A DNA stretch of 64,000 nt from a phage: sequence record PX930852.1; one strand, 5' to 3'. Each line of letters opens with the position of its first letter. Positions within the stretch are counted from its first letter, which is position 1. Shown here piece by piece: positions 7,291-64,000 of this stretch. A program made the translations under genes and the position numbers. The notes beneath the pieces were generated by a model. It made no database searches. It was not told the DNA's origin and worked only from the letters and a program-made list of their open reading frames with translations.

Positions 7291-7500
7291 ATGAGCCATC
7301 GTGGAAGAACCCATGCAGCGATGATGAAAGGTGCTTCAAAGGAGACTATCAAAAATCGTAAGCAGAAGTTGTTTGAGAGAATGAACAGGTTAATTGACAA
7401 TTCATCTCTTTCAGGTTCTGAGAAGGTTTTCTTGAAAGGTAATCTGAAAAGCATTGCACAAGAACTTATTGACATTGAGTATTGGAGACATCAAAAATGA
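7291..7500 (+). CDS. hypothetical protein (69 aa)
   Basis: ATG preceded by GGAGGG RBS. Confidence 0.45.
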   Translation: MSHRGRTHAAMMKGASKETIKNRKQKLFERMNRLIDNSSLSGSEKVFLKGNLKSIAQELIDIEYWRHQK

Positions 7501-7715
7501 CACTTGCAGACGTTATTCAGCAACTTCACGACAACTGCTATACTCCAGAGTTGATTCAGGAGATGTGTATTGTAGTGATGCCTAGCAAGTTCGTAAAAGC
7601 CTTTAACAGTGACACTTTAAGGTCTGCACACATTCTTATTGTTGAAGGTAAGATTGCAAAAGACCGTACTGGAGTACTCAAAGGTGAGCGTATTGATATT
7701 CTGGAGTTGCTATGA
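7497..7715 (+). CDS. hypothetical protein
   Basis: ORF 7482..7715; internal ATG 7497 has GGAGA RBS and ATGA overlap with upstream stop. Confidence 0.4.
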   Translation: MTLADVIQQLHDNCYTPELIQEMCIVVMPSKFVKAFNSDTLRSAHILIVEGKIAKDRTGVLKGERIDILELL

Positions 7716-54899: not shown

Positions 54900-55448
54900 A
54901 TGGAAAAAGATAACTTAAAAGAAGTTGAAGGTAACTACCTAGTACTTGACTGGAGTGATGTTCGAGAAGCACTCTCCGAAGAAAATCTTGACTGGTTCGA
55001 ACAAATTATCTTTGCAGTACGGCATAACAGAGAAGTTGAAAATGGTAAAGAGCCACTTGAAGGAATCTTTGTAGAAAGGTCTTATCCGTTCTATGAAGAC
55101 ACTTTGCAGAAAGTTAAGATGTACTTTAGACAGAAGAACCGTAAAGTGGTCACTATGGTATCTCTTGGTGGACAGAGTATGTCTGTGATGGAAGATATCA
55201 ACCCTAAGAGACCGAGTAAAGGTATTTGTATAAAAATCACAGGACATGAAGAGTACATCTCAGTAGACGATTTTAGTTCATTCTGTAGTGGTTCTTGTGT
55301 CTTTAATGGTTTTCACTATGATATCCGAGTGTACCCAATCAAGGGAGATGATATCATGATGCAGATATTCGATAACAACAATGGATTCACTCATTTTTAT
55401 CAGACAACTAAGTCATCCCTAAAAACAGTTCTGGAAACACTGATTTAA
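54900..55448 (+). CDS. hypothetical protein
   Basis: ORF 54825..55448 trimmed to ATG 54900 to avoid overlap; followed by terminator. Confidence 0.45.
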   Translation: MEKDNLKEVEGNYLVLDWSDVREALSEENLDWFEQIIFAVRHNREVENGKEPLEGIFVERSYPFYEDTLQKVKMYFRQKNRKVVTMVSLGGQSMSVMEDINPKRPSKGICIKITGHEEYISVDDFSSFCSGSCVFNGFHYDIRVYPIKGDDIMMQIFDNNNGFTHFYQTTKSSLKTVLETLI

Positions 55449-55459
55449 AATATCTTAAG

Positions 55460-55490
55460 AGCCTCCTTAATCGGGGGCTTTTTAATTTTT
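55460..55490 (+). terminator. rho-independent terminator closing plus-strand operon
   Basis: AGCCTCC-TTAATC-GGGGGCT followed by TTTTTAATTTTT. Confidence 0.65.
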
Positions 55491-57064
55491 ATAAAATTTT
55501 ATCGGTTGTCCCAACCTCTGGGTCACCATCATATGTGAATAAAATATCTATCCTTCTTAACAACCTTCTTAATCTTACTCTCTATATAGTTATATAGTAC
55601 TATATAGTATCTTAGTAACTATCTAGTGGTCTTAATAGCCCCTCTGTATAACCCTTCTAACAAGCCCTCTAACAAGCCTTCTTAACAACCTATACAATCA
55701 CCTTAACCATCCCTCTACACCTTCTTAGAAGCTCCTATACACCTCTTAATCTCTATGTCAGCTATGATAATCTCTATAGGTGTTCACTAGGTATTACTAA
55801 GCCTCTATATAGACTGTTTTAATAAACTTAACAGGAATATCTTTACAGGCCTTATCTCACAAGGTCTAACACGGTACTAACAAGGTATCTTATAAGCCTG
55901 TTATTACCTGTATTTTTAAAAGGCTGTATAGGTAATTATTCAGAATCTTAAAATTTTTATAAAATAGGACTGTCAAGTCATTTTTTAGGGTCTTTGAAGG
56001 AACTCAAAAATATCTGATTAGGATGTATATCTGCTTGGTAGCCCTTAACAGCTCCCTTACAAGTACTTTGCAAAATTTTAAAATATCCTTAACAATTTCT
56101 TAACAGTTCTAACACCTTCTTAACAACTCTTCAAAGGTCTTAACAGATTCTTAACAGAACTAACAAGGCTGTAACAGATTTCTAACAAGTACTGAATAGG
56201 CTTTACAGAATCTTAACAGATGACTAACAAGAGCTAACAAGTTAATTTTTAAGAGTTATTTTGTTAAGATAATTAACAAGTTTCTAACAAGTGTTTAATC
56301 TTTTTAACAAGCTATTAACATGGTCACTATCTCTTTTCTTATCGTTCCCTTTCCTTTCTTAGTGACTTCTTAAACATACCTCTTAAAAGCCCTCTATAGC
56401 TCCTTGTAAGCCCTTTTAAGCCTCTTCCTAGTATCTATCCCCCAACTGTACAGATAGCTCTTTATAGGGCTTTACAGGAGCTTATAAGGCTATGTCAAAG
56501 ACTCTTACAAGGCTTTTACGTGGTCTTAACAGAGATTTAACAAGGGGCTAACAAGTTGCTAACAAGTGCCTTAAAAGCATAACTATGTAGGGATTGTTAA
56601 GAAATTGTTAAGAAAATGTTAAGGGGGCTAGCATTTACGTAACTTTATAGCCTCTTTTACGTAACTTTGAAGTAACTTTATAGCCCCTATAACATACTTT
56701 TAAGACACTACCAATAGGATTCGATAGATTCCTATCTCATAGCCCTTTTTAATAGTTCACAAGAATACTAACGAGATGATAAAGCTTACACCCTTATAAG
56801 ATTCTTTTAAGGCTCTAGGAAGTTTTATAAAGGGATTTTTAGGGTGAGTTAATGCAATCCCTTAAGTTAGGTTGATAAGGCTGTTATAGAGCTTTATAGA
56901 GCGTTTTAGTGGTTGCCCTTCCCTTTCGGGTTATGGGCTTATATTTAAGTTGATTTGATAAGAAGATATAGAGTAGACTATAGAGTTATTGCTTTTAAGG
57001 TCTGGTAAGATTCTAACTTGTTAGGGGAGTCTGGGAAGATTCTGGGAAGGGATTGGATAGACGT
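55491..57064 (+). repeat. ORF-free region dense in TAACAAG/TAACAGA-type motifs
   Basis: no ORF of 60 aa or more in any frame; tens of CTTAACAA/CTAACAAG/TTAACAGA copies almost all on plus strand; secondary repeats TTACGTAACTTT and GTAACTTTATAGCC. Confidence 0.7.
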
Positions 57065-57094
57065 AAAAAAGCCCCTATGAGAAGGAGCTTTTCA
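57065..57094. terminator. terminator closing minus-strand early array
   Basis: AAAAAA-AGCCCCT-loop-AGGAGCT-TTTT; second hairpin GGGGCTAAATAGCCCC at 57102-57117. Confidence 0.5.
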
Positions 57095-57127
57095 GGTATC
57101 TGGGGCTAAATAGCCCCGTTGCGTCGA

Positions 57128-57376
57128 TTAGTTGTAACCTTGTTTGCTGTAGTATAGGGAGACGATTTTTTCTCCCCAGTAGTGGTAGTGATATTCCTCG
57201 TTTATGGCTTCTTTTACAGCGTCCTTCCAAAAGTCATCGGTAGGGTTATAATCTGGTAGCACCTGCTGAATCAGCATTTTGATAAGGTCAAAGGTGTTAT
57301 CTGTTCCACCGATATCGAATTTTGCATCAAGTTCGTGGCAGCCATAAGCATTAACAGTTACGCGGATAGTTGACAT
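57128..57376 (-). CDS. hypothetical early protein (82 aa)
   Basis: preceded by type-A cassette and GGAGA RBS; followed by terminator at 57065. Confidence 0.5.
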   Translation of the reverse strand: MSTIRVTVNAYGCHELDAKFDIGGTDNTFDLIKMLIQQVLPDYNPTDDFWKDAVKEAINEEYHYHYWGEKIVSLYYSKQGYN

Positions 57377-57441
57377 AATTTAGATTCTCCAGTTTAGGAC
57401 TTTACTTAGTGGGGGGAGGTCATCCCCCGTTAATTAGTAAT
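57377..57441 (-). promoter_or_regulatory. type-A early-gene cassette (hairpin plus RBS)
   Basis: minus sense GGGGGATGACCTCCCCCC stem-loop then ACTAAGTAAAGTCCTAAACTGGAGAATC and ATG. Confidence 0.55.
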
Positions 57442-57705
57442 TTACTGCATATTGGCGTATGTTGCAAGCCTTTTTTCGTTGTATTTTGTAAGAATCTCAC
57501 AAGATACAACATCATACTTTGTAACAGCGTTGCCTTTATCGAGGTCAAAAAAGCCAAACGCTTTACCATCTTTGAATCCGACAACTTCGTAAGATTCTTT
57601 GATGATTTCACCATTGAACAAATCACTTTCGATACGGTGAAATAATGCTACATCTTCTTTGTCGGTTGCAATTTGTAAAAGTGTGGTTAATTCTACGTTT
57701 TCCAT
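57442..57705 (-). CDS. hypothetical early protein (87 aa)
   Basis: preceded by type-A cassette and RBS. Confidence 0.5.
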   Translation of the reverse strand: MENVELTTLLQIATDKEDVALFHRIESDLFNGEIIKESYEVVGFKDGKAFGFFDLDKGNAVTKYDVVSCEILTKYNEKRLATYANMQ

Positions 57706-57771
57706 CTTGATAACTCCAGTTTAGGACTTTATTTAGTGGGGAAGGTCATTCCCTCCCCGTTGATTGACAAT
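57706..57771 (-). promoter_or_regulatory. type-A early-gene cassette
   Basis: conserved TTGTCAATCAACGGGGAGGGAATGACCTTCCCCACTAAATAAAGTCCTAAACTGGAG. Confidence 0.55.
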
Positions 57772-58302
57772 TTACAGACTTTTAAGTGTCTCGTCAATAT
57801 CTTTTTCAATGTCTTTTAAAGTTTTTTCTAAGTTCTTGATATTGAAGGATAAACCTTCACCGAGAGTCTTAGAGTAACCACTAGGACGTAAATTATACAG
57901 TTTAATTTCTTCCACTTTAAAGAGACTAACTAACTCACCGTTTACATCATAAGCCATTGAAACAGTATTTGCAGGTGCATTGTAAAACTTGTTTAGTGAC
58001 TTGATAGAACGTTCATAAGCCATTTTATAACCGTTTAAAAGGTTTTTAACGTGGTTGTGAACGTTTTTACACTCATCTAAGTAAATCTCTAAGAATAACG
58101 GTAATAATTCCGCTACAGCTTGCATAAAGTGAGAGACTACAACGGTTGCAACATTACGACGATGTACATAATAAGCCCCGTTTTCTGACTTAGTGATGGT
58201 TGCAAAGTGTACCCCATTACAACGAAATTCATATGTATCTTTTACAGGCTTAGACATTACAGCATTTGAACGAATGAAGTTGATAGCTTTAAACTTGTTC
58301 AT
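57772..58302 (-). CDS. hypothetical early protein (176 aa)
   Basis: preceded by type-A cassette and RBS. Confidence 0.5.
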   Translation of the reverse strand: MNKFKAINFIRSNAVMSKPVKDTYEFRCNGVHFATITKSENGAYYVHRRNVATVVVSHFMQAVAELLPLFLEIYLDECKNVHNHVKNLLNGYKMAYERSIKSLNKFYNAPANTVSMAYDVNGELVSLFKVEEIKLYNLRPSGYSKTLGEGLSFNIKNLEKTLKDIEKDIDETLKSL

Positions 58303-58375
58303 TTTGACTCTCCTAGTTTAAGGATTTTACTTAGTGGGGAAGGTCATTCCCTCCCCGTTGATTAGTAATTTACTT
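58303..58375 (-). promoter_or_regulatory. type-A early-gene cassette
   Basis: same conserved hairpin and RBS module. Confidence 0.55.
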
Positions 58376-58462
58376 GTTTTGATAGTTGATTGCAAGTAAT
58401 TTTTTGAGCTTATCTATAAAGAATCTTTTAAGTTAATCCCTTTTAGATAAACCCCCTCGAAC

Positions 58463-58492
58463 AAAGTTACCAATGTCAAGGGGTATTGTCAA
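58463..58492. promoter_or_regulatory. tandem TGTCAA element (copy 3), orientation ambiguous
   Basis: ATGTCAAGGGGTATTGTCAACACTTTTTTA in plus orientation inside a minus-strand gene array. Confidence 0.3.
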
Positions 58493-58524
58493 CACTTTTT
58501 TAAAAGTTTTTTGTAAGTCATTGA

Positions 58525-58866
58525 TTAACTGATGAATATTTTTTCAGGTTTTACATAGCTGATACGCTGACTTTTTAGCAGGTCATCCCAGATTAACGCG
58601 GCGATATGGGTATAACCGGATTCACGTAAAAGTTTCATTGTTTTACTTCTCGTTTCAAAACGGCTTGCATAGTACTCACTATTCAGCGTCGTTTTATTCC
58701 CTTCGTTGTCTACATGGATAATCTGCATCACTTGAAAGGGGCTTGTGTCCTCGCCTTTATTCCACTGTTCAAAGTATTTTAGGCACTGCATAGGTGACAT
58801 CTTATCACTGACCTGAGTTGACCAAGATGCGCCAGCTTTATCGGTAATTACGGTTACATAAGCCAT
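58525..58866 (-). CDS. hypothetical early protein (113 aa)
   Basis: preceded by type-A cassette and RBS. Confidence 0.5.
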   Translation of the reverse strand: MAYVTVITDKAGASWSTQVSDKMSPMQCLKYFEQWNKGEDTSPFQVMQIIHVDNEGNKTTLNSEYYASRFETRSKTMKLLRESGYTHIAALIWDDLLKSQRISYVKPEKIFIS

Positions 58867-58956
58867 TTTTAGATTCTCCAGTTTAGGACTTTATTTAGTG
58901 GGGAAGGTCATTCCCTCCCCGTTGATTGACAATTTACAGATTTTTATCAGGCTTGT
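58867..58956 (-). promoter_or_regulatory. type-A early-gene cassette
   Basis: same module; upstream TTGAAA-17-ATAAAA candidate promoter. Confidence 0.55.
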
Positions 58957-59190
58957 CTAGTCTTTTTCAATGATAATTTCATACTGACCATCTACGCTGT
59001 CAAAATAGACACCTTCTTCATCTTCTGTCTTAAAGTAACATTGTATATCATCACTGGCGGGATAGTCTTGCCTTGCTATCTGGCACACTTGAACAGCATT
59101 TTCTTTACTCCCTGTAAACTCCTCAAGCCCTTTAAAATCGCATGAATGACCGTTACAAATAGAAAGGATGAGGTAAATGGTTGTAAGCAT
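58957..59190 (-). CDS. hypothetical protein with N-terminal signal-like segment (77 aa)
   Basis: MLTTIYLILSICNG hydrophobic N-terminus; AAGAGG RBS. Confidence 0.45.
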   Translation of the reverse strand: MLTTIYLILSICNGHSCDFKGLEEFTGSKENAVQVCQIARQDYPASDDIQCYFKTEDEEGVYFDSVDGQYEIIIEKD

Positions 59191-59203
59191 GATTTAAGCC
59201 TCT

Positions 59204-59224
59204 TAAAAGCCCCTTACAGGGGCT
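59204..59224 (-). terminator. intergenic terminator/attenuator
   Basis: AGCCCC-TGTAA-GGGGCT followed by TTTTAAG in minus sense. Confidence 0.5.
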
Positions 59225-59256
59225 GAATAGTGTTTATAAGGTGATTGCATAGGTTT

Positions 59257-59799
59257 TTAGAAAAAACCCTTTAAATCCTCTTCTGCGATGTTTCCTGTCA
59301 GTGTATCCATGATGTCACAAAAAACCTGAATACTGTCCGACTGTTGAACACTTTTAGCAAGTAGTTCTAATGTCTCATCAAGATAGTTTAAATTTGGGTT
59401 ATCCAATGAAGGAAGACAAAAAGGTGAATACATAGCGTTAAACTCTGTTGTATAGACCTTTTTAATCCAATTTATATCAAAATACTCTGTAAAACTTGCT
59501 ACACTCGACATATTATCACAAGAATAATCATCGTTTAGTTCATCCTCTGGAATATCAAGTTCTAGGATAACAATATTTTGTGTCTTCATCTGGAAAGCTG
59601 CGGTGATAGTGGCATTGCCTAAAGCTTGCTGGATACCTTCAGAGATTATTTCTTCCTCATCGTCGCCATAGATTTTATTTTCTGGATACACGTAAAAATT
59701 GCCGTCCATATCCGAACAATTCCATGCGCCTGATGGTTTATCACCGTTATTAATCAGGTTGAGGAAATTTTCTTGAGTAGTTCCGTGATAGCATTTCAT
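59257..59799 (-). CDS. hypothetical early protein (180 aa)
   Basis: preceded by type-B cassette; followed by terminator hairpin 59204. Confidence 0.5.
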   Translation of the reverse strand: MKCYHGTTQENFLNLINNGDKPSGAWNCSDMDGNFYVYPENKIYGDDEEEIISEGIQQALGNATITAAFQMKTQNIVILELDIPEDELNDDYSCDNMSSVASFTEYFDINWIKKVYTTEFNAMYSPFCLPSLDNPNLNYLDETLELLAKSVQQSDSIQVFCDIMDTLTGNIAEEDLKGFF

Positions 59800-59886
59800 T
59801 TTTGAATCTCCTAGTTTAAGGATTTAGTGGTAAAGCTCTTTATCTGGGGCTTACTTTATCGAACTATAAGCCCCTTGTAAAGTACT
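59800..59886 (-). promoter_or_regulatory. type-B early-gene cassette (promoter-like)
   Basis: minus sense TTTACA-17 nt-TATCTT inside GGGGCTTA..TAAGCCCC inverted repeat, then RBS. Confidence 0.55.
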
Positions 59887-60135
59887 TTATTTAACTTTCT
59901 TTGAGAAAATTAGTTTAACTGCAACCGTAGGAACCTCGTCAGCGATTGTAACCAGCATCACTTTTTGAGTGACCAACTTATAACCGTTCTTTGCAGCGTA
60001 TGCGGTAAAACGGTTGACATTGTAACTATAAGTTTTTGGTGTGTTATCTGGCATGTGGTAAATGAAAGGTTTACCCAAATTTTCTTCTTGTGTCAATAAT
60101 CTACAGGTATCGGGAATGTTAAAGTAGTTCATCAT
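59887..60135 (-). CDS. hypothetical early protein (82 aa)
   Basis: preceded by type-B cassette. Confidence 0.45.
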   Translation of the reverse strand: MMNYFNIPDTCRLLTQEENLGKPFIYHMPDNTPKTYSYNVNRFTAYAAKNGYKLVTQKVMLVTIADEVPTVAVKLIFSKKVK

Positions 60136-60221
60136 TTTTAGAATCTCCAGTTTAGGATTTAGTGGTAAAGCTCTTTATCTGAGGCTTAAGTTATCAACTT
60201 TTAAGCCCCTTGTAAAGTACT
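60136..60221 (-). promoter_or_regulatory. type-B early-gene cassette
   Basis: same module (GGGGCTTAAAAGTTGATAACTTAAGCCTC). Confidence 0.55.
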
Positions 60222-60425
60222 TTATTTGTTATTTTTGACAACTTTTAAAACTGCAAGATAGCCTAAGCAATAAGAATCACCGAAGAGAGTCCTACCCATG
60301 AAAGAATCCTCTTTGATATCCTTTGCAGTGACAGTTTTTTCTACGCCGTGGGAAAGGACTATATCACCAACTTTGATATCTTTGATGTGTGTAGTTTCAA
60401 TGGTTAAACCATTAATAATAGCCAT
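60222..60425 (-). CDS. hypothetical early protein (67 aa)
   Basis: preceded by type-A cassette. Confidence 0.45.
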   Translation of the reverse strand: MAIINGLTIETTHIKDIKVGDIVLSHGVEKTVTAKDIKEDSFMGRTLFGDSYCLGYLAVLKVVKNNK

Positions 60426-60527
60426 TTTTAGATTCTCCAGTTTAGGACTTTATTTAGTGGGGAAGGTCATTCCCTCCCCGTTGATGTGTAATTTAATCTA
60501 TCTAAAAACCAGTGTCAACAAAATTTT
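60426..60527 (-). promoter_or_regulatory. type-A early-gene cassette with upstream TTGACA-17-TAAATT
   Basis: minus sense GTTGACAC..TAAATT followed by conserved hairpin GGGGAGGGAATGACCTTCCCC. Confidence 0.55.
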
Positions 60528-60932
60528 TTAGAGTTCTGCATAAATTGCATCACAGACATCACGAAAATCGTGATTTGTCAAATTACGTTGTAACCAAGTG
60601 GCAAAGAAATCAGCGATTGCAAAATTAGCGTCATACTCGACGGATAGCCATACTTTAACAGCAAATCGGAACATCTTTAAATCAAGCTCTTTATTCATTA
60701 CCTTTGATTTGCCTAACATGTCGGACATTTCATATTGCGCACCGTCTAGCGTGATACCTGCTGCAACGTCAGCCAATGAACTTTTTACGTTTTCAACGTC
60801 TAAAATAACGCTTTGAATCTTTCCGATAATGTTGTGCAATGTCTCATCAGGCGCTGATGATGTCATAATGTTGATTCGATTAACGGTCAAACGTGCTTTT
60901 AACATTGATAATTCACGGTTATTAATAGCCAT
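60528..60932 (-). CDS. hypothetical early protein
   Basis: ORF 60528..60947 uses a TTG inside the conserved cassette; true start taken as ATG 60932 after GGAGAA. Confidence 0.45.
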   Translation of the reverse strand: MAINNRELSMLKARLTVNRINIMTSSAPDETLHNIIGKIQSVILDVENVKSSLADVAAGITLDGAQYEMSDMLGKSKVMNKELDLKMFRFAVKVWLSVEYDANFAIADFFATWLQRNLTNHDFRDVCDAIYAEL

Positions 60933-61018
60933 TTTTAAGTTCTCCAATTTAGGATTGAGTGGTAAAGCTCTTTATCTGGGGCTTAAGATATCAACTTCCA
61001 AGCCCCATGTAAAGTACT
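60933..61018 (-). promoter_or_regulatory. type-B early-gene cassette
   Basis: same module. Confidence 0.5.
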
Positions 61019-61291
61019 TTACATTAAATGCAGTTTTTTGCCTTTTACTATAATGTAACTCGATGCGCTATTGCTTTGCACATCCTGATAAATTCTGCGC
61101 AAACGTCCTTCGTAGTGTACTTTCCAACTGGTTGGAATCTTTTTACCGTATCCCGTAGCAGTTTTTTGGAGTCCTGCTACTTGCCAATCTAAGATATGTT
61201 GCTCAGCTTGTAAGTCTTCAAAGTGCATGACACCATCTACATAGTGACGTAGTGTGACATTTAAAGTGCGACCGTTGTTAGTAGTATACAT
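61019..61291 (-). CDS. hypothetical early protein (90 aa)
   Basis: preceded by type-A cassette. Confidence 0.45.
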   Translation of the reverse strand: MYTTNNGRTLNVTLRHYVDGVMHFEDLQAEQHILDWQVAGLQKTATGYGKKIPTSWKVHYEGRLRRIYQDVQSNSASSYIIVKGKKLHLM

Positions 61292-61381
61292 TTTAGAATC
61301 TCCTAGTTTAAGGACTTTATTCAGTGGGGAAGGTCATTCCCTCCCCGTTGATGTGTAATTTAATCTATCTAAAAACCAGTG
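61292..61381 (-). promoter_or_regulatory. type-A early-gene cassette with upstream TTGACA-17-TAAATT
   Basis: near-identical to 60426-60527. Confidence 0.55.
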
Positions 61382-61714
61382 TCAACAGTTTTGTTTTCGT
61401 TTGCTCAATTCTTGAACAATTACAGCGTAGTAGTCTTTTAAGTCACTGATATTTAAAGCATTTATTAGTGAATTATAATCATCGATTAACTGAAAATCAT
61501 CTTTGAAGATGTCACTTATCTGATAGGTTTTCGCTTTGTATCTGAAGCTCATCTCTAGCCGCTTTATTTGCTCATCACTGAGACGCCCTAGAAAGCTCTC
61601 TACAAGGTTATTGCTGACCTGCTGTGTGATTGCCTTATTTGCTAGATTATAGGCTTTATATGCCTTATATAGCGCGAAAATGGCAATGATTGCAGTGATA
61701 CCAGTCATTAACAT
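61382..61714 (-). CDS. putative membrane protein (110 aa)
   Basis: N-terminal TM helix MLMTGITAIIAIFALY; coupled to upstream gene. Confidence 0.45.
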   Translation of the reverse strand: MLMTGITAIIAIFALYKAYKAYNLANKAITQQVSNNLVESFLGRLSDEQIKRLEMSFRYKAKTYQISDIFKDDFQLIDDYNSLINALNISDLKDYYAVIVQELSKRKQNC

Positions 61715-62004
61715 GGTGTTTCCTCTTTACGTGATACTTTGCCATTTACAGTTATCTCATAGGATTCTAATAAATCGCTTTTAGACTTTACAGGACTTTT
61801 AAAAGTATCATCATAAATATTAACTTGCAATACAGGTTTTTTATACTCCCTGCAACTGTTCCATAAGCAAATCACTACACGACGGCCTTTTATTTTGCCG
61901 TGTAACCATTCCATAACATCATGATTATTCCTTGATGTTTCAATGAAATCAATTTTGTTGAGTAATTTGCTTAGATTTTCACGCACTTGATTTGATAATT
62001 TCAT
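61708..62004 (-). CDS. hypothetical early protein (98 aa)
   Basis: preceded by type-B-like cassette. Confidence 0.45.
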   Translation of the reverse strand: MKLSNQVRENLSKLLNKIDFIETSRNNHDVMEWLHGKIKGRRVVICLWNSCREYKKPVLQVNIYDDTFKSPVKSKSDLLESYEITVNGKVSRKEETPC

Positions 62005-62096
62005 TTTAGAATCTCCTAGTTTAAGGGCTTTATTTGATAAATCTCTTTATCTGGGGCTATCCTACCAGCTTGATAACCCCGTGTAAAGAAATCTAT
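62005..62096 (-). promoter_or_regulatory. type-B-like early-gene cassette (variant)
   Basis: shares RBS-proximal block and GGGGCT hairpin arm. Confidence 0.45.
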
Positions 62097-62609
62097 TTAG
62101 TTCTTAAAGATATTCATCACTGAATCTTTTAGTGATTCCAAACGTTCTAATACTTCAGATTCTGCGTCTGAATTGTTCACCTCTTCTTTTAGTCTATCCT
62201 CTAAATCATCGCCGTCACTATAGCACCAATCAAAAGCGTAGCCAATATAAAAACTGTCTAAAATTGTTTGACCATTTGCATCGACAACTTTCGCGGCAAG
62301 GTTGTATTCTGAAGCCTCTAAATCTCTTTCTAATTCTTTCTGTAAGCTTGTGTAAGCCTCTTTTGATGGATTTTCCCGGCCTTGTTTTGCATAGTCACTT
62401 GAAAGCTGTTTAAGGCTGTAATGCAAAGGGATTGCATATTTAAAATCATTACGCTGACAGTTGGGGTTTTTAATAGTCACGCCGCCCTGATGGGTGTCTG
62501 TAAACTCCCAATTATCAAGATTATGGCTTGCTTCAAAGCAATTGACAGCTTCATAAATAATAGTGAATTTTTCTTTTACAACTTCAAAGGTAGCGTCTAC
62601 AGTTTTCAT
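62097..62609 (-). CDS. hypothetical early protein (170 aa)
   Basis: preceded by type-B cassette. Confidence 0.5.
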   Translation of the reverse strand: MKTVDATFEVVKEKFTIIYEAVNCFEASHNLDNWEFTDTHQGGVTIKNPNCQRNDFKYAIPLHYSLKQLSSDYAKQGRENPSKEAYTSLQKELERDLEASEYNLAAKVVDANGQTILDSFYIGYAFDWCYSDGDDLEDRLKEEVNNSDAESEVLERLESLKDSVMNIFKN

Positions 62610-62697
62610 TTTTGAATCTCCAGTTTAGGACTTAGTAGTAAAGCTCTTTATCTGGGGCTTAAGATATCAACTTTTAAGCCCCTTGTAAAGTACTTTA
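62610..62697 (-). promoter_or_regulatory. type-B early-gene cassette
   Basis: same module. Confidence 0.55.
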
Positions 62698-62955
62698 TCA
62701 GATTAAATTGCCAGTTAATGATAAGTGCATTTTGTAACCTTGTTTAGTGAAAACATTCACTTTACCGAGTGTTTTTACACCTTTAAAAAGGTTATTTGAA
62801 CTGCGTTTTAGGTTTAACTGTTTATCAACCTTCACGCCCCACCTTACAGCAGATTGTTTTCCGTTGTCAACCACTTTCCCGCATAACTTTTTAGCCATGA
62901 TACGAGCGTCATCACGAGTCTTTGCGGTAATTACAACGTTTTTGATAATAGCCAT
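62698..62955 (-). CDS. hypothetical early protein
   Basis: ORF 62698..62970 uses TTG in cassette; start taken as ATG 62955. Confidence 0.45.
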   Translation of the reverse strand: MAIIKNVVITAKTRDDARIMAKKLCGKVVDNGKQSAVRWGVKVDKQLNLKRSSNNLFKGVKTLGKVNVFTKQGYKMHLSLTGNLI

Positions 62956-63041
62956 TTTTAAGTTCTCCAATTTAGGATTTAGTGGTAAAGCTCTTTATCT
63001 GGGGCTTACTTTATCGAACTATAAGCCCCTTGTAAAGTACT
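62956..63041 (-). promoter_or_regulatory. type-B early-gene cassette
   Basis: same module. Confidence 0.55.
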
Positions 63042-63425
63042 TTATTTGTTAATTTTGAAGATAGTTACATAACCATCGCTCCCGATGATTTGCGATACCC
63101 CAGCTTTTTCTACTTTATAGCCCATATTTTCAAGATGATAAACAGCATCATCATAACCATATGCGCCACCCTGATAACGTCGCTTATCACATCTTACTAA
63201 TACTTTTCCGCGTCCTGCTAGTGCATTCAGTACGGCTTTTTCACTTGATAGTGTACCGTCTAACATGGTTGCCGTGTAATGGTTGATTCTATTCCCGTTT
63301 ACATCATACTTAAAATTGAATGCGTGAACAACAATAATGTTGCCTTTAAAATTCTCATCAAGTGACTTCTCCAGTACTTTGCGAAAGTTGTCTTTGTTGA
63401 TGAATTTCGGTGCACGATATGCCAT
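63042..63425 (-). CDS. hypothetical early protein (127 aa)
   Basis: preceded by type-B cassette. Confidence 0.5.
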   Translation of the reverse strand: MAYRAPKFINKDNFRKVLEKSLDENFKGNIIVVHAFNFKYDVNGNRINHYTATMLDGTLSSEKAVLNALAGRGKVLVRCDKRRYQGGAYGYDDAVYHLENMGYKVEKAGVSQIIGSDGYVTIFKINK

Positions 63426-63515
63426 TTTTGAATCTCCTAGTTTAAGGGTTAATTTGGTAAAGCTCTTTATCTGGGGCTTACTTTATCGAACTATAAGCCC
63501 CATGTAAAGTACTTT
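63426..63515 (-). promoter_or_regulatory. type-B early-gene cassette
   Basis: same module. Confidence 0.55.
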
Positions 63516-63737
63516 TTATTTATCGTAATAGTAAATCGCTGTTTGCCTTGTAAAATTCTTAGTATTTCTTGTAAGGTAGCAATTAGAGTTTATAGCTGTT
63601 TCTACATAGTTGCAATAGTCAGCTTCTGATATTCTAGACCATACGCCACAAATTTGCATGTAAAAACGTTTTACCTTTGTGTTAACGTTAGTTGTAACCA
63701 TCAATTCACGACTGTAAAGCATTATTTCGCGCTCCAT
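63516..63737 (-). CDS. hypothetical early protein (73 aa)
   Basis: overlaps upstream gene. Confidence 0.4.
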   Translation of the reverse strand: MEREIMLYSRELMVTTNVNTKVKRFYMQICGVWSRISEADYCNYVETAINSNCYLTRNTKNFTRQTAIYYYDK

Positions 63738-63910
63738 TTCTCAAAGAGTTCAGCAGGGAAACGTTCGCTATACCCTTTTAAGGAAAAAGTATTATCTTTG
63801 TGGATAGCTTCCACCTGATAAACCTTATAAGAGCGTATAGTTAGCATTTTGTAAGAGTATTCGTGCTTAATGTTAACCTCATCGCCAACTTTAATTTTTC
63901 TTGATGCCAT
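63722..63910 (-). CDS. hypothetical early protein (62 aa)
   Basis: preceded by type-A cassette at 63911. Confidence 0.4.
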   Translation of the reverse strand: MASRKIKVGDEVNIKHEYSYKMLTIRSYKVYQVEAIHKDNTFSLKGYSERFPAELFEKWSAK

Positions 63911-63970
63911 TTTTGAATCTCCAGTTTAGGATTTTATTTAGTGGGAAAGGTCATTCCCTCCCCGTTGATG
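63911..63970 (-). promoter_or_regulatory. type-A early-gene cassette
   Basis: GGGAAAGGTCATTCCCTCCCC hairpin and RBS module. Confidence 0.5.
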
Positions 63971-64000
63971 TAAATATTAGATAACCACGTTCAAAGAGTC

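Follow-up and report, generated by a model that had tools for sequence, protein, structure and literature searches.

Promoter and stem-loop cassettes between the early genes of a Felix O1-like phage are probably of the promoter-early stem-loop kind described in T4-like phages

We analysed a stretch of 64,000 nucleotides (nt) from the phage sequence record PX930852.1 (the window, numbered from its first letter), which comes from a Felix O1-like myovirus (Felixounavirus, Ounavirinae) and contains, at 57128-63910, an early array of 17 small minus-strand genes encoding proteins of 62-180 amino acids (aa). Fourteen of the 17 genes are preceded by near-identical cassettes of about 90 bp. We think it likely that these cassettes are composites of the kind known in T4-like phages as promoter-early stem-loops (PeSLs), in which a sigma70 promoter, an RNA stem-loop and a shared leader with its Shine-Dalgarno (SD) sequence double as patches for recombination. 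The feature is real and well defined, and by its sequence it is best filed as the PeSL kind in another phage subfamily and not as a new kind of element.

The cassettes fall into two families, seven of type A and seven of type B, in agreement with a preliminary description of this DNA that had counted at least 14 in two families. The type-A hairpin (GGGGAGGGAATGACCTTCCCC) is present in six copies with at most one mismatch, all on the minus strand (57738, 58336, 58900, 60459, 61326 and 63943), and the seventh is a variant (GGGGGATGACCTCCCCC, 57412-57428). The type-B block (CCCCAGATAAAGAGCTTTACC) is present in seven copies (59829, 60164, 60961, 62036, 62637, 62984 and 63456). No copy of either motif is expected by chance, and within the window both are confined to the array. 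The ribosome-binding site (RBS) block is likewise limited to the array region, bar chance matches with three mismatches; it had been described as the same in both families and it is indeed conserved, but it exists in two discrete forms, CCTAAA(C/T)TGGAG and CCTTAAACTAGGAG. Each cassette occupies the entire intergenic space, starting at the stop codon of the preceding gene and reaching as far as the second codon of the gene that follows. The statement that every small gene of the array follows a cassette was too strong, since two of the three remaining genes (starts at 63737 and 61714) overlap the gene upstream and the third (start at 59190) lies behind a hairpin with a TTTT run.

All 14 cassettes carry a sigma70-like -35 hexamer, a 17-nt spacer and a -10 hexamer in a rigid register. 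Ten of them pass the threshold of a promoter scan at that same register, three are 8/12-type matches and one is clipped by the window end. The type-A promoter, which had been noticed in some copies as TTGACA-17-TAAATT, is present in all seven: a -35-like hexamer (TTGACA, TTGCAA, TAGACA or TTGACG), 17 nt, and TAAATT or, in the first copy, TAATAT. In several copies the -35 lies within the upstream ORF (open reading frame) and the -10 contains the stop codon of that ORF. Past the -10 there are exactly 10 nt (..ATCAAC; 10 nt in the six measurable copies), an 8-bp stem with a 5-nt loop, and an A-rich leader of about 34 nt with GGAG. If transcription starts 7-9 nt after the -10, the type-A hairpin would begin about 1-3 unpaired nt from the 5' end of its own mRNA. 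In type B, TTTACA is followed by 17 nt and TAnnnT, and a 9-bp stem holds the -10 inside its loop and 3' arm; this hairpin begins 1 nt after the -35 in all seven copies and ends 7 nt after the -10. The type-B -10 had been given as TATCTT, which holds for two copies, the others having TAAAGT (three), TAACTT (one) and TAGGAT (one). The predicted start is the A of CCCC-AGATAAAG, immediately past the stem, which would leave the type-B hairpin outside the transcript of its own cassette.

The consensus and the fixed register of these promoters suggest that host sigma70 RNA polymerase uses them to drive each ORFan early and separately, and so does the early signal reported for Felix O1 by reverse transcription PCR (RT-PCR): the ORFs that correspond to the array are transcribed from 5 min after infection, with ORFs 16, 20, 21 and 22 peaking at 5 min (PMC3185647). 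The idea of a set of early promoters with a shared structure in the 5' untranslated region (UTR) thus holds for the promoters and for the common leader and SD; it does not hold for the structure in type B, whose hairpin would lie outside its own 5' UTR.

To analyze the stems, we collected 363 cassette instances from 50 related loci (GenBank records of Felixounavirus, Mooglevirus, Suspvirus and Kolesnikvirus plus IMG/VR contigs). An alignment of whole type-B cores with MAFFT gapped the 3' arm of the GGGGTTATC class and was replaced by arm-anchored pseudo-alignments. The conservation profile of the RBS block is circular, as the block had been used to detect the cassettes, and it was excluded as evidence. 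The hairpins have folding energies of -12.4 to -13.7 kcal/mol (z = -3 to -4). In the arm-anchored alignments 95-98% of the cells of the type-B apical stem are paired and five of its nine pairs show two-sided changes, for instance U-A to A-U, or G-C to U-A in Erwinia phages; this covariation was matched by 0 of 500 shuffles, and no slid register came near it. When its flanks are included, type B gives a stem of about 20 bp in three parts (6+5+9 bp, separated by internal loops of 1x1 and 3x3), whose outer helix (TAAAGT/GCTTTA) takes in the upstream stop codon and whose middle helix (CTTTA/TAAAG) takes in part of the -35. The outer helix shows limited covariation: 10 sequences have U-A in place of G-C, and in 63 of 73 a U.G wobble closes the helix. 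As for type A, an approximate count, made with regular expressions that clipped some variants, gives at least 18 distinct stems with varied loops among the related loci; the consensus stem holds a G.U pair, and the sense-strand folds are more stable than the antisense folds.

Inverted repeats of this sort could also work as double-stranded DNA, as the operator of a dimeric repressor, as a cruciform that modulates promoter opening or as the site on which a site-specific recombinase acts. As such a reading would have it, the type-B element forms a long, imperfect palindrome with the promoter at its centre, and the authors of the PeSL work speculated about a recombination protein that might bind the GGGG...CCCC motif (PMC2839356, PMC4122927). 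However, a duplex palindrome or a cruciform would treat both strands alike, whereas across the type-B structure the sense-strand mismatches are nearly all G.T (133 G.U cells in the RNA against 4 A.C cells); moreover, the half-sites drift in sequence while pairing is kept, and crossovers map to the SD-ATG block and not to the hairpin. A function as duplex DNA is therefore very improbable, and on this comparative evidence covariation and G.U asymmetry show that the cassette stems act as RNA on the sense strand.

Since the type-B stem is selected as RNA but would lie outside its own transcript, it would have to act on transcripts that arrive from upstream. One such action is ordinary Rho-independent termination, which would make each gene an isolated promoter-to-terminator unit. 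The hairpins are annotated in that way in the records of XTG1, KhF1-3 and ASO1A (by WebGeSTer and the depositors), and a PeSL stem-loop that has no canonical T-run cut the expression of a downstream lacZ as strongly as rrnB T1 did (PMC2839356). Against this, all 14 hairpins run on into ACTAAATAAAG or AGATAAAGAG and not into a T-run; a terminator scan that needed at least five T found no terminator at any cassette, and TransTerm did not list the hairpins in the Felix O1 paper (PMC3185647). The type-A hairpin lies downstream of its own promoter, so that an efficient terminator there would abort its own gene, and the array does use T-tailed hairpins elsewhere, with TTTTTT at its end and TTTT at an internal site. 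For these reasons we consider ordinary terminators unlikely.

Under the PeSL-kind reading, the G+C-rich stem-loop would rather define or protect the 3' end of the RNA from upstream. The extended type-B stem, running through the -35 and the upstream stop codon, would form only in read-through transcripts, and it would most likely serve the message from upstream, be it through attenuation, by blocking exonucleases or as a site of processing. We rank an exonuclease barrier or partial attenuation first among these possibilities, RNase III-type processing of type B second, and efficient intrinsic termination last. Early mRNAs of T7 carry intercistronic hairpins that are processed by RNase III, and elements of the REP (repetitive extragenic palindromic) type are 3' stabilisers. 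The extended type-B fold is similarly an interrupted stem of about 20 bp between early cistrons that could leave a protective 3' hairpin on the upstream message, but in T7 the RNA is polycistronic and comes from a single cluster of promoters upstream, whereas here each hairpin is fused to a promoter of its own; the type-A stem has only 8 bp, against about 20 bp for the interrupted stem of T7-type sites. Type A would work in the same way as type B and, in addition, may stabilise its own mRNA as a 5'-terminal hairpin, a position that is known to stabilise E. coli mRNAs. The 5' UTR hairpin of ompA is a stem-loop of this sort, which guards against 5'-end-dependent decay, and the type-A hairpin would resemble it in its predicted distance from the 5' end, as judged from promoter geometry, while differing in that it would also sit at the 3' side of read-through RNA. 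Type B is not so placed, and the stabilising stem-loop proposed in the preliminary description is accordingly compatible with type A and not with type B, whose hairpin ends at the predicted start.

That description had also proposed a regulator that binds the hairpin. A shared 5'-UTR site for a phage regulator, such as an early shut-off factor or an antiterminator, would suit the type-A hairpin, which lies inside the predicted 5' UTR, and beyond the hairpin the leader and SD block show great uniformity and can be recognised even in phages of Erwinia, although this uniformity could reflect a trans-acting factor on the leader rather than on the hairpin. But type-B hairpins would be absent from their own mRNA, the loops are diverse in sequence and length (AATGA, GAAA, CGATAA and AAGATAAA; 10-11 nt in type B), the stems change by compensatory substitution, and some cassettes have no hairpin whatsoever. 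Since loops and stems vary so freely with compensation, a generic structure is favoured over a sequence-specific site, and we regard a regulator site as quite unlikely.

The second role proposed for the cassettes, as patches for recombination, comes from the contrast between them and the genes that they separate. The cassettes are about 85-100% identical, while the 17 array genes are, as far as their sequences tell, unrelated ORFans: a comparison among them placed them in 17 different families with no pair of detectable similarity, and a Pfam search with all 17 proteins gave zero matches. Because the cassettes are near-identical and the genes are not related, the cassettes would offer patches of homology. 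Gene-order tables of seven genomes show the promoter-hairpin half of a cassette remaining beside the same upstream gene when a different gene follows downstream. Depending on the genome, families g2, g10, g13 and g31 follow either type A or type B, indels of g1, g9, g17 and g27 have their junctions within the SD..ATGGCW block, and five explicit indel or replacement events have junctions in the SD-ATG block. In wV8, which has no counterpart of the first array genes, g2 comes immediately after the type-A cassette that the window has in front of g1, and the join falls within an 18-nt stretch (GGAGATTCAAAAATGGCA) common to both cassettes. Michonne and SUSP1 are without g9 and have g10 behind a type-A unit; SUSP1 is also without g1 and has g31 behind type A, whereas in Michonne g31 is behind type B; and ASO1A and wV8 have extra genes, g17 and g27, inserted at the SD block.

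These rearrangements can also be seen in numbers. When the array was compared by blastn with all fetched loci, 101 of 108 internal ends of high-scoring segment pairs fell in cassettes, as did 22 of 26 distinct breakpoint clusters, although cassettes make up 19% of the array (4-5 fold enrichment; binomial p = 1.5e-12). Of the 22 families of downstream genes, seven are found behind type A as well as type B and 11 next to more than one upstream neighbour, and the RBS form flips at 8 of 13 orthologous positions among four phages that are about 92-95% identical. Cassette identity is 0.82 between positional orthologues of different genera, 0.81 between non-orthologous pairs and 0.84-0.87 between paralogues of one genome, which is compatible with slow homogenisation. 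It could be argued that the likeness of the cassettes merely results from genes having been duplicated in tandem, or from strong selection acting on promoter and RBS, with no special part in recombination; promoter, SD and spacing are under obvious functional constraint, and one tandem gene duplication does exist, in Michonne. This we hold to be highly improbable, given that the 17 flanked genes have no detectable similarity, that the identity covers positions with no known role in promoter or RBS, that type A or B and the two RBS forms re-assort against the downstream gene among phages that are about 94% identical elsewhere, and that breakpoints are enriched as described. The comparisons with relatives thus show the cassettes as joints of gene insertion, deletion and exchange. 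In these comparisons, gene deletions, insertions, duplications and exchanges have their junctions in the shared block from the A-rich leader's GGAG SD to ATG-GCW, and sub-parts of the cassettes are reshuffled.

At about 7480-7530 of the Citrobacter phage Michonne locus, the SD-ATG of one cassette is joined straight to the CTTTACA of the next type-B cassette (...ggagaatctaaaATGctttacaTGGGG...), and beside this fusion there are tandem copies of an 85-aa gene (7091 and 7521). The junction looks like a recombination scar accompanied by a duplication.

Several observations weigh against the PeSL-kind reading. Promoter-like sites in the region number 37, against 28.6 +/- 5.5 in shuffles, which is no significant excess, so that the argument for promoters rests on positional regularity. 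The searchable literature holds no start-site, 3'-end or RNA-stability data for any Felix O1-like phage, and promoters and starts rest on consensus. Some cassettes of relatives have promoter and RBS but no hairpin (SUSP1 g14 and Michonne g32), and the hairpin is therefore dispensable at some positions. Finally, the excess of identity among paralogues of one genome (0.84, against 0.82 for orthologues between genera) is small, and the enrichment of breakpoints could come in part from cassettes diverging more slowly than genes and not from crossover within them.

PeSLs have been described in the T4-like phages RB49/phi1, PST/T4 and nt-1/KVP40, where a unit begins with a stop codon and an AT-rich tract, goes on with a sigma70 promoter and a GGGG...CCCC stem-loop, for which five placements with respect to the promoter are described, and closes with an SD and an ATG; they are concentrated in hyperplastic ORFan regions and have crossovers between the -10 and the ATG (Arbiol et al. 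2010, PMC2839356; Comeau et al. 2014, PMC4122927). The cassettes of the window show all of these sequence features, including indels bounded by cassettes. They are likewise intergenic units of about 100 bp with an upstream stop codon, an AT-rich stretch, a sigma70-like -35/17/-10, a GGGG...CCCC stem-loop, an SD and an ATG; the position of the stem-loop varies (in the spacer, over the -10 or past it), the stems have no T-run, the units cluster in a hyperplastic region of small ORFans with indels and replacements between close relatives, and crossovers lie between the -10 and the ATG. The differences are also clear. The lineage here is Ounavirinae, whereas PeSLs belong to Straboviridae, and there is no detectable sequence homology beyond functional motifs; by organism name, the blastn matches of the cassettes are Felix O1-like enterobacterial and Erwinia phages. 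RB49 PeSLs, as sequenced, read TTGACA, GGGGATC..GATCCCC, TATACT, leader and GGAGAATCAAAATG, without a T-run, and their stem exactly fills the 17-nt spacer, whereas the type-B stem runs from 1 nt past the -35 to the start, encloses the -10 and has two outer helices. Only two discrete and highly homogenised types exist here. Lastly, experiments on PeSLs have shown promoter strength, reduction of downstream expression by the stem and formation of mini-circles (PMC2839356, PMC4122927), so that promoter activity, terminator activity and mini-circles are known there by experiment and the present cassettes from sequence.

Two further likenesses to RB49 were observed. Its SD-to-ATG block (TAGGAGAATCAAAAATG) is nearly identical to the Ounavirinae blocks CTGGAGAATCTAAAAATG and TAGGAGATTCAAAAATG, and its CGAAAC-rich leader resembles that of the cassettes of Erwinia Kolesnikvirus. 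Either convergence, or shared ancestry and exchange, could account for them.

The same elements have been recorded before in Felix O1-like phages, in other terms. Whichard et al. (2010) gave units of 57 and 39 bp in Felix O1 as direct repeats, uninterpreted (PMC3185647), and the GenBank record of wV8 (EU877232) contains them as repeat_region features DR_1 to DR_9; the 57-bp unit is the core of the type-B cassette and the 39-bp unit is the type-A promoter. Unlike our analysis, neither the paper nor the record ties the repeats to promoters, RNA structure or gene shuffling. A literature search for the literal repeats, for PeSLs in Felix O1-like phages and for start-site or RNA-seq data returned only that sentence on direct repeats plus generic predictions of promoters and terminators, and no PeSL-like reading of the repeats of the Felix O1 group was found in the literature searched.

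Related designs appear in other phages. PAK_P1-like Pseudomonas phages have a repeated 41-nt promoter motif, described as a promoter repeat only (PMC4309531). As with the cassettes, almost invariant units (TTGACA-N17-TAgAAT) are repeated there in the short early region of Felix O1-related myoviruses, GC stems lie within or near the spacer and the -10 of the JG004 copies, and the array family g11 is held in common; the sequence differs, however, and no stem-loop, RBS block or recombination role was reported. In Salmonella phage GEC_vB_MG (Vequintavirinae) and in Pseudomonas phage JG004, homologues of the array genes g4 and g11 lie behind units of a sigma70 promoter and a GC hairpin (for example TTGACG-17-TACTAT-..ATCA-GGGCG...CGCCC and TTGACA-..GGGCC..TAGAAT GGCCC). 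Judging from these sequences, the design appears to be widespread beyond T4-like and Felix O1-like phages. A bolder proposal is that type B is dual-coded, with a sigma70 promoter overlaid by an interrupted stem of about 20 bp that would act solely in read-through transcripts, as a site of RNase III-type processing or of 3' protection, so that the processed 5' end equals the primary start, and that together with type A it forms an integrase-free, self-homogenising platform for gene cassettes, which could move early genes between unrelated lineages of virulent myoviruses. In its favour are the promoter-hairpin units beside homologous ORFans in Vequintavirinae and Pakpunavirus and the SD block GGAGAATCAAAAATG, nearly the same as in RB49 PeSLs, but we consider it doubtful. 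Homologues of array genes were sought in T4-like phages as a sign of cassette exchange across families, and the matches came from other phage groups instead (Pakpunavirus, Vequintavirinae, and Vibrio, Pectobacterium and Providencia phages).

Other known repeats were considered and dropped. In a CRISPR-like array (clustered regularly interspaced short palindromic repeats) the "spacers" would be ORFs and the repeats would hold promoter and RBS; integron attC sites do not fit, with no integrase and one promoter per gene; and REP elements or miniature inverted-repeat transposable elements were set aside because the cassettes are found solely at gene boundaries, in one orientation and in one array. 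N4-type DNA-hairpin promoters were discarded in view of the good sigma70 hexamers and because Felix O1 has no gene for a phage RNA polymerase (PMC3185647).

The type-A cassettes, all on the minus strand like those of type B, are located as follows, numbered in the order of the array. Cassette 1 (63908-64000) precedes a gene of 62 aa and has its -10, TAATAT, at 63974-63979, its hairpin at 63943-63963, SD at 63919-63922 and ATG at 63910; its -35, TTGACT, is clipped by the window end at 64000 (GACT is visible) and is complete in XTG1 and ASO1A. Cassette 6 (61289-61385) has TTGACA at 61380-61385, TAAATT at 61357-61362, hairpin at 61326-61346, SD at 61300-61303 and ATG at 61291, and cassette 8 (60423-60518) has TTGACA at 60513-60518, TAAATT at 60490-60495, hairpin at 60459-60479, SD at 60435-60438 and ATG at 60425. 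The -35 is TAGACA (58954-58959) in cassette 11 (58864-58959; TAAATT 58931-58936, hairpin 58900-58920, SD 58876-58879, ATG 58866) and TTGCAA (58390-58395) in cassette 12 (58300-58395; TAAATT 58367-58372, hairpin 58336-58356, SD 58310-58313, ATG 58302). Cassette 13 (57703-57797) has TTGACG at 57792-57797, within the upstream ORF, and TAAATT at 57769-57774, holding the stop codon of that ORF, followed by the hairpin at 57738-57758, SD at 57714-57717 and ATG at 57705. Cassette 14 (57374-57467), with the variant hairpin GGGGGA/TCCCCC at 57412-57428, has TTGCAA at 57462-57467, TAAATT at 57439-57444, SD at 57387-57390 and ATG at 57376.

Among the type-B cassettes, cassette 2 (63423-63518) starts at the stop codon of the upstream gene and has TTTACA at 63503-63508, TAAAGT at 63480-63485, hairpin at 63473-63501, SD at 63434-63437 and ATG at 63425. 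Cassette 3 (62953-63044) has its -35 at 63031-63036, TAAAGT at 63008-63013, hairpin at 63001-63029, SD at 62965-62968 and ATG at 62955, with a spurious TTG start at 62970. Next come cassette 4 (62607-62700; -35 62684-62689, TATCTT 62661-62666, hairpin 62654-62682, SD 62618-62621, ATG 62609) and cassette 5 (62002-62099; -35 62082-62087, TAGGAT 62059-62064, hairpin 62053-62080, SD 62013-62016, ATG 62004), the latter with the variant stem GGGGTTATC/GATAGCCCC and a variant outer helix. Cassette 7 (60930-61021) has its -35 at 61008-61013, TATCTT at 60985-60990, hairpin at 60978-61006, SD at 60942-60945 and ATG at 60932, with another spurious TTG start at 60947. The hairpin of cassette 9 (60133-60224; -35 60211-60216, TAACTT 60188-60193, SD 60145-60148, ATG 60135) is at about 60181-60209 and has a CCTC 3' arm that forms G.U pairs, and cassette 10 (59797-59889) has its -35 at 59876-59881, TAAAGT at 59853-59858, hairpin at 59846-59874, SD at 59808-59811 and ATG at 59799.

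Three other places in the array carry hairpins on the minus strand. The one at 59205-59224 (AGCCCC-TGTA-AGGGGCT-TTTT) precedes the sole array gene that has neither a cassette nor an upstream overlap; the equivalent site is annotated as a Rho-independent terminator in the wV8 record, and its run of four T explains why our scan did not list it. The array ends (57065-57117) with a canonical terminator, GCTCC...GGGGC followed by TTTTTT, at about 57065-57088, which is annotated at the equivalent site of ASO1A (TransTermHP and WebGeSTer) and has t23 as its Felix O1 counterpart. Directly before it, past the last array gene, lies a hairpin remnant that resembles type B (GGGGCTA-TTT-AGCCCC-AGATA, 57102-57117). 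Neither a promoter nor an RBS nor a gene follows it, and the remnant looks like what is left of a cassette that was lost together with its gene. The third place is the spacer ahead of cassette 12 (58303-58524), unusually long at 222 nt, which contains two overlapping TTGACA hexamers, one giving TTGACA-17-TAACTT, and two adjacent strong hairpins (-30.2 kcal/mol, against -16.0 +/- 2.8 in shuffles; z = -5.1). Michonne and SUSP1 have the second hairpin (TTTATCTAAAAGGGATT...GATTCTTTATAGATAAG) with hardly any change, and ASO1A has a 59-nt "terminator" annotated at this site; the spacer possibly encodes a small RNA. Rfam 15 covariance models gave no match at E <= 1 on either strand of 55000-64000.

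The plus-strand block and the early array converge, and a stretch of about 1.6 kb (55480-57080) between their ends is free of ORFs on both strands and packed with short iterated motifs. YTGTTARNA occurs there in 17 copies within 55555-56613, mostly on the minus strand (42 in the whole window, against 21 expected), and "ctataaag"-like repeats are also present; no Rfam match falls in the stretch. SUSP1, SunLIRen, Michonne and ASO1A have a gap without annotation at this position, and the stretch could be an origin, a packaging site or an array of protein-binding sites.

The assignment of the window to the Felix O1-like group follows from matching a 7-kb region against phage records: 257 records match, the closest being phage XTG1 (94.6% identity across 99% of the query). 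One matching record is labelled Staphylococcus and one Campylobacter, and mislabelling or contamination is probable for both. A cluster of 25 tRNA genes (39799-45025, minus strand), including two each of tRNA-Met, tRNA-Gln, tRNA-Lys and tRNA-Ser and three of tRNA-Leu, is typical of the group; 22 tRNAs were reported for Felix O1 itself (PMC3185647). The gene content of the array differs between relatives.

Recognition of the cassettes would correct database annotation in two ways. Other records label the type-A stem as "terminator" and the upstream hexamers as "promoter", and these "terminator" hairpins have no U-tracts. Several ORF starts, in turn, have been placed within cassettes: the spurious TTG-extended starts (MENLKMAI) that had been pointed out earlier are real for ORFs 60528-60947 and 62698-62970, and cassette conservation yields mis-annotated N-termini across this phage group. 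The annotated start of Felix O1 ORF19 falls in the type-A hairpin region.

The strand-asymmetric wobble bears on the question that the PeSL authors left open, namely whether the stem works as RNA or is a target as DNA, and the cassettes would be ready-made, compact expression parts for phage engineering. More generally, our analysis would carry the idea of PeSLs, as portable linkers of promoter, stem-loop and RBS through which accessory early genes are both expressed and shuffled, beyond the T4-like phages into the Felix O1 subfamily, which is widely used in biocontrol and typing of Salmonella and E. coli, and it may offer a reason why about a dozen ORFans differ between therapeutic phages that are otherwise near-identical.

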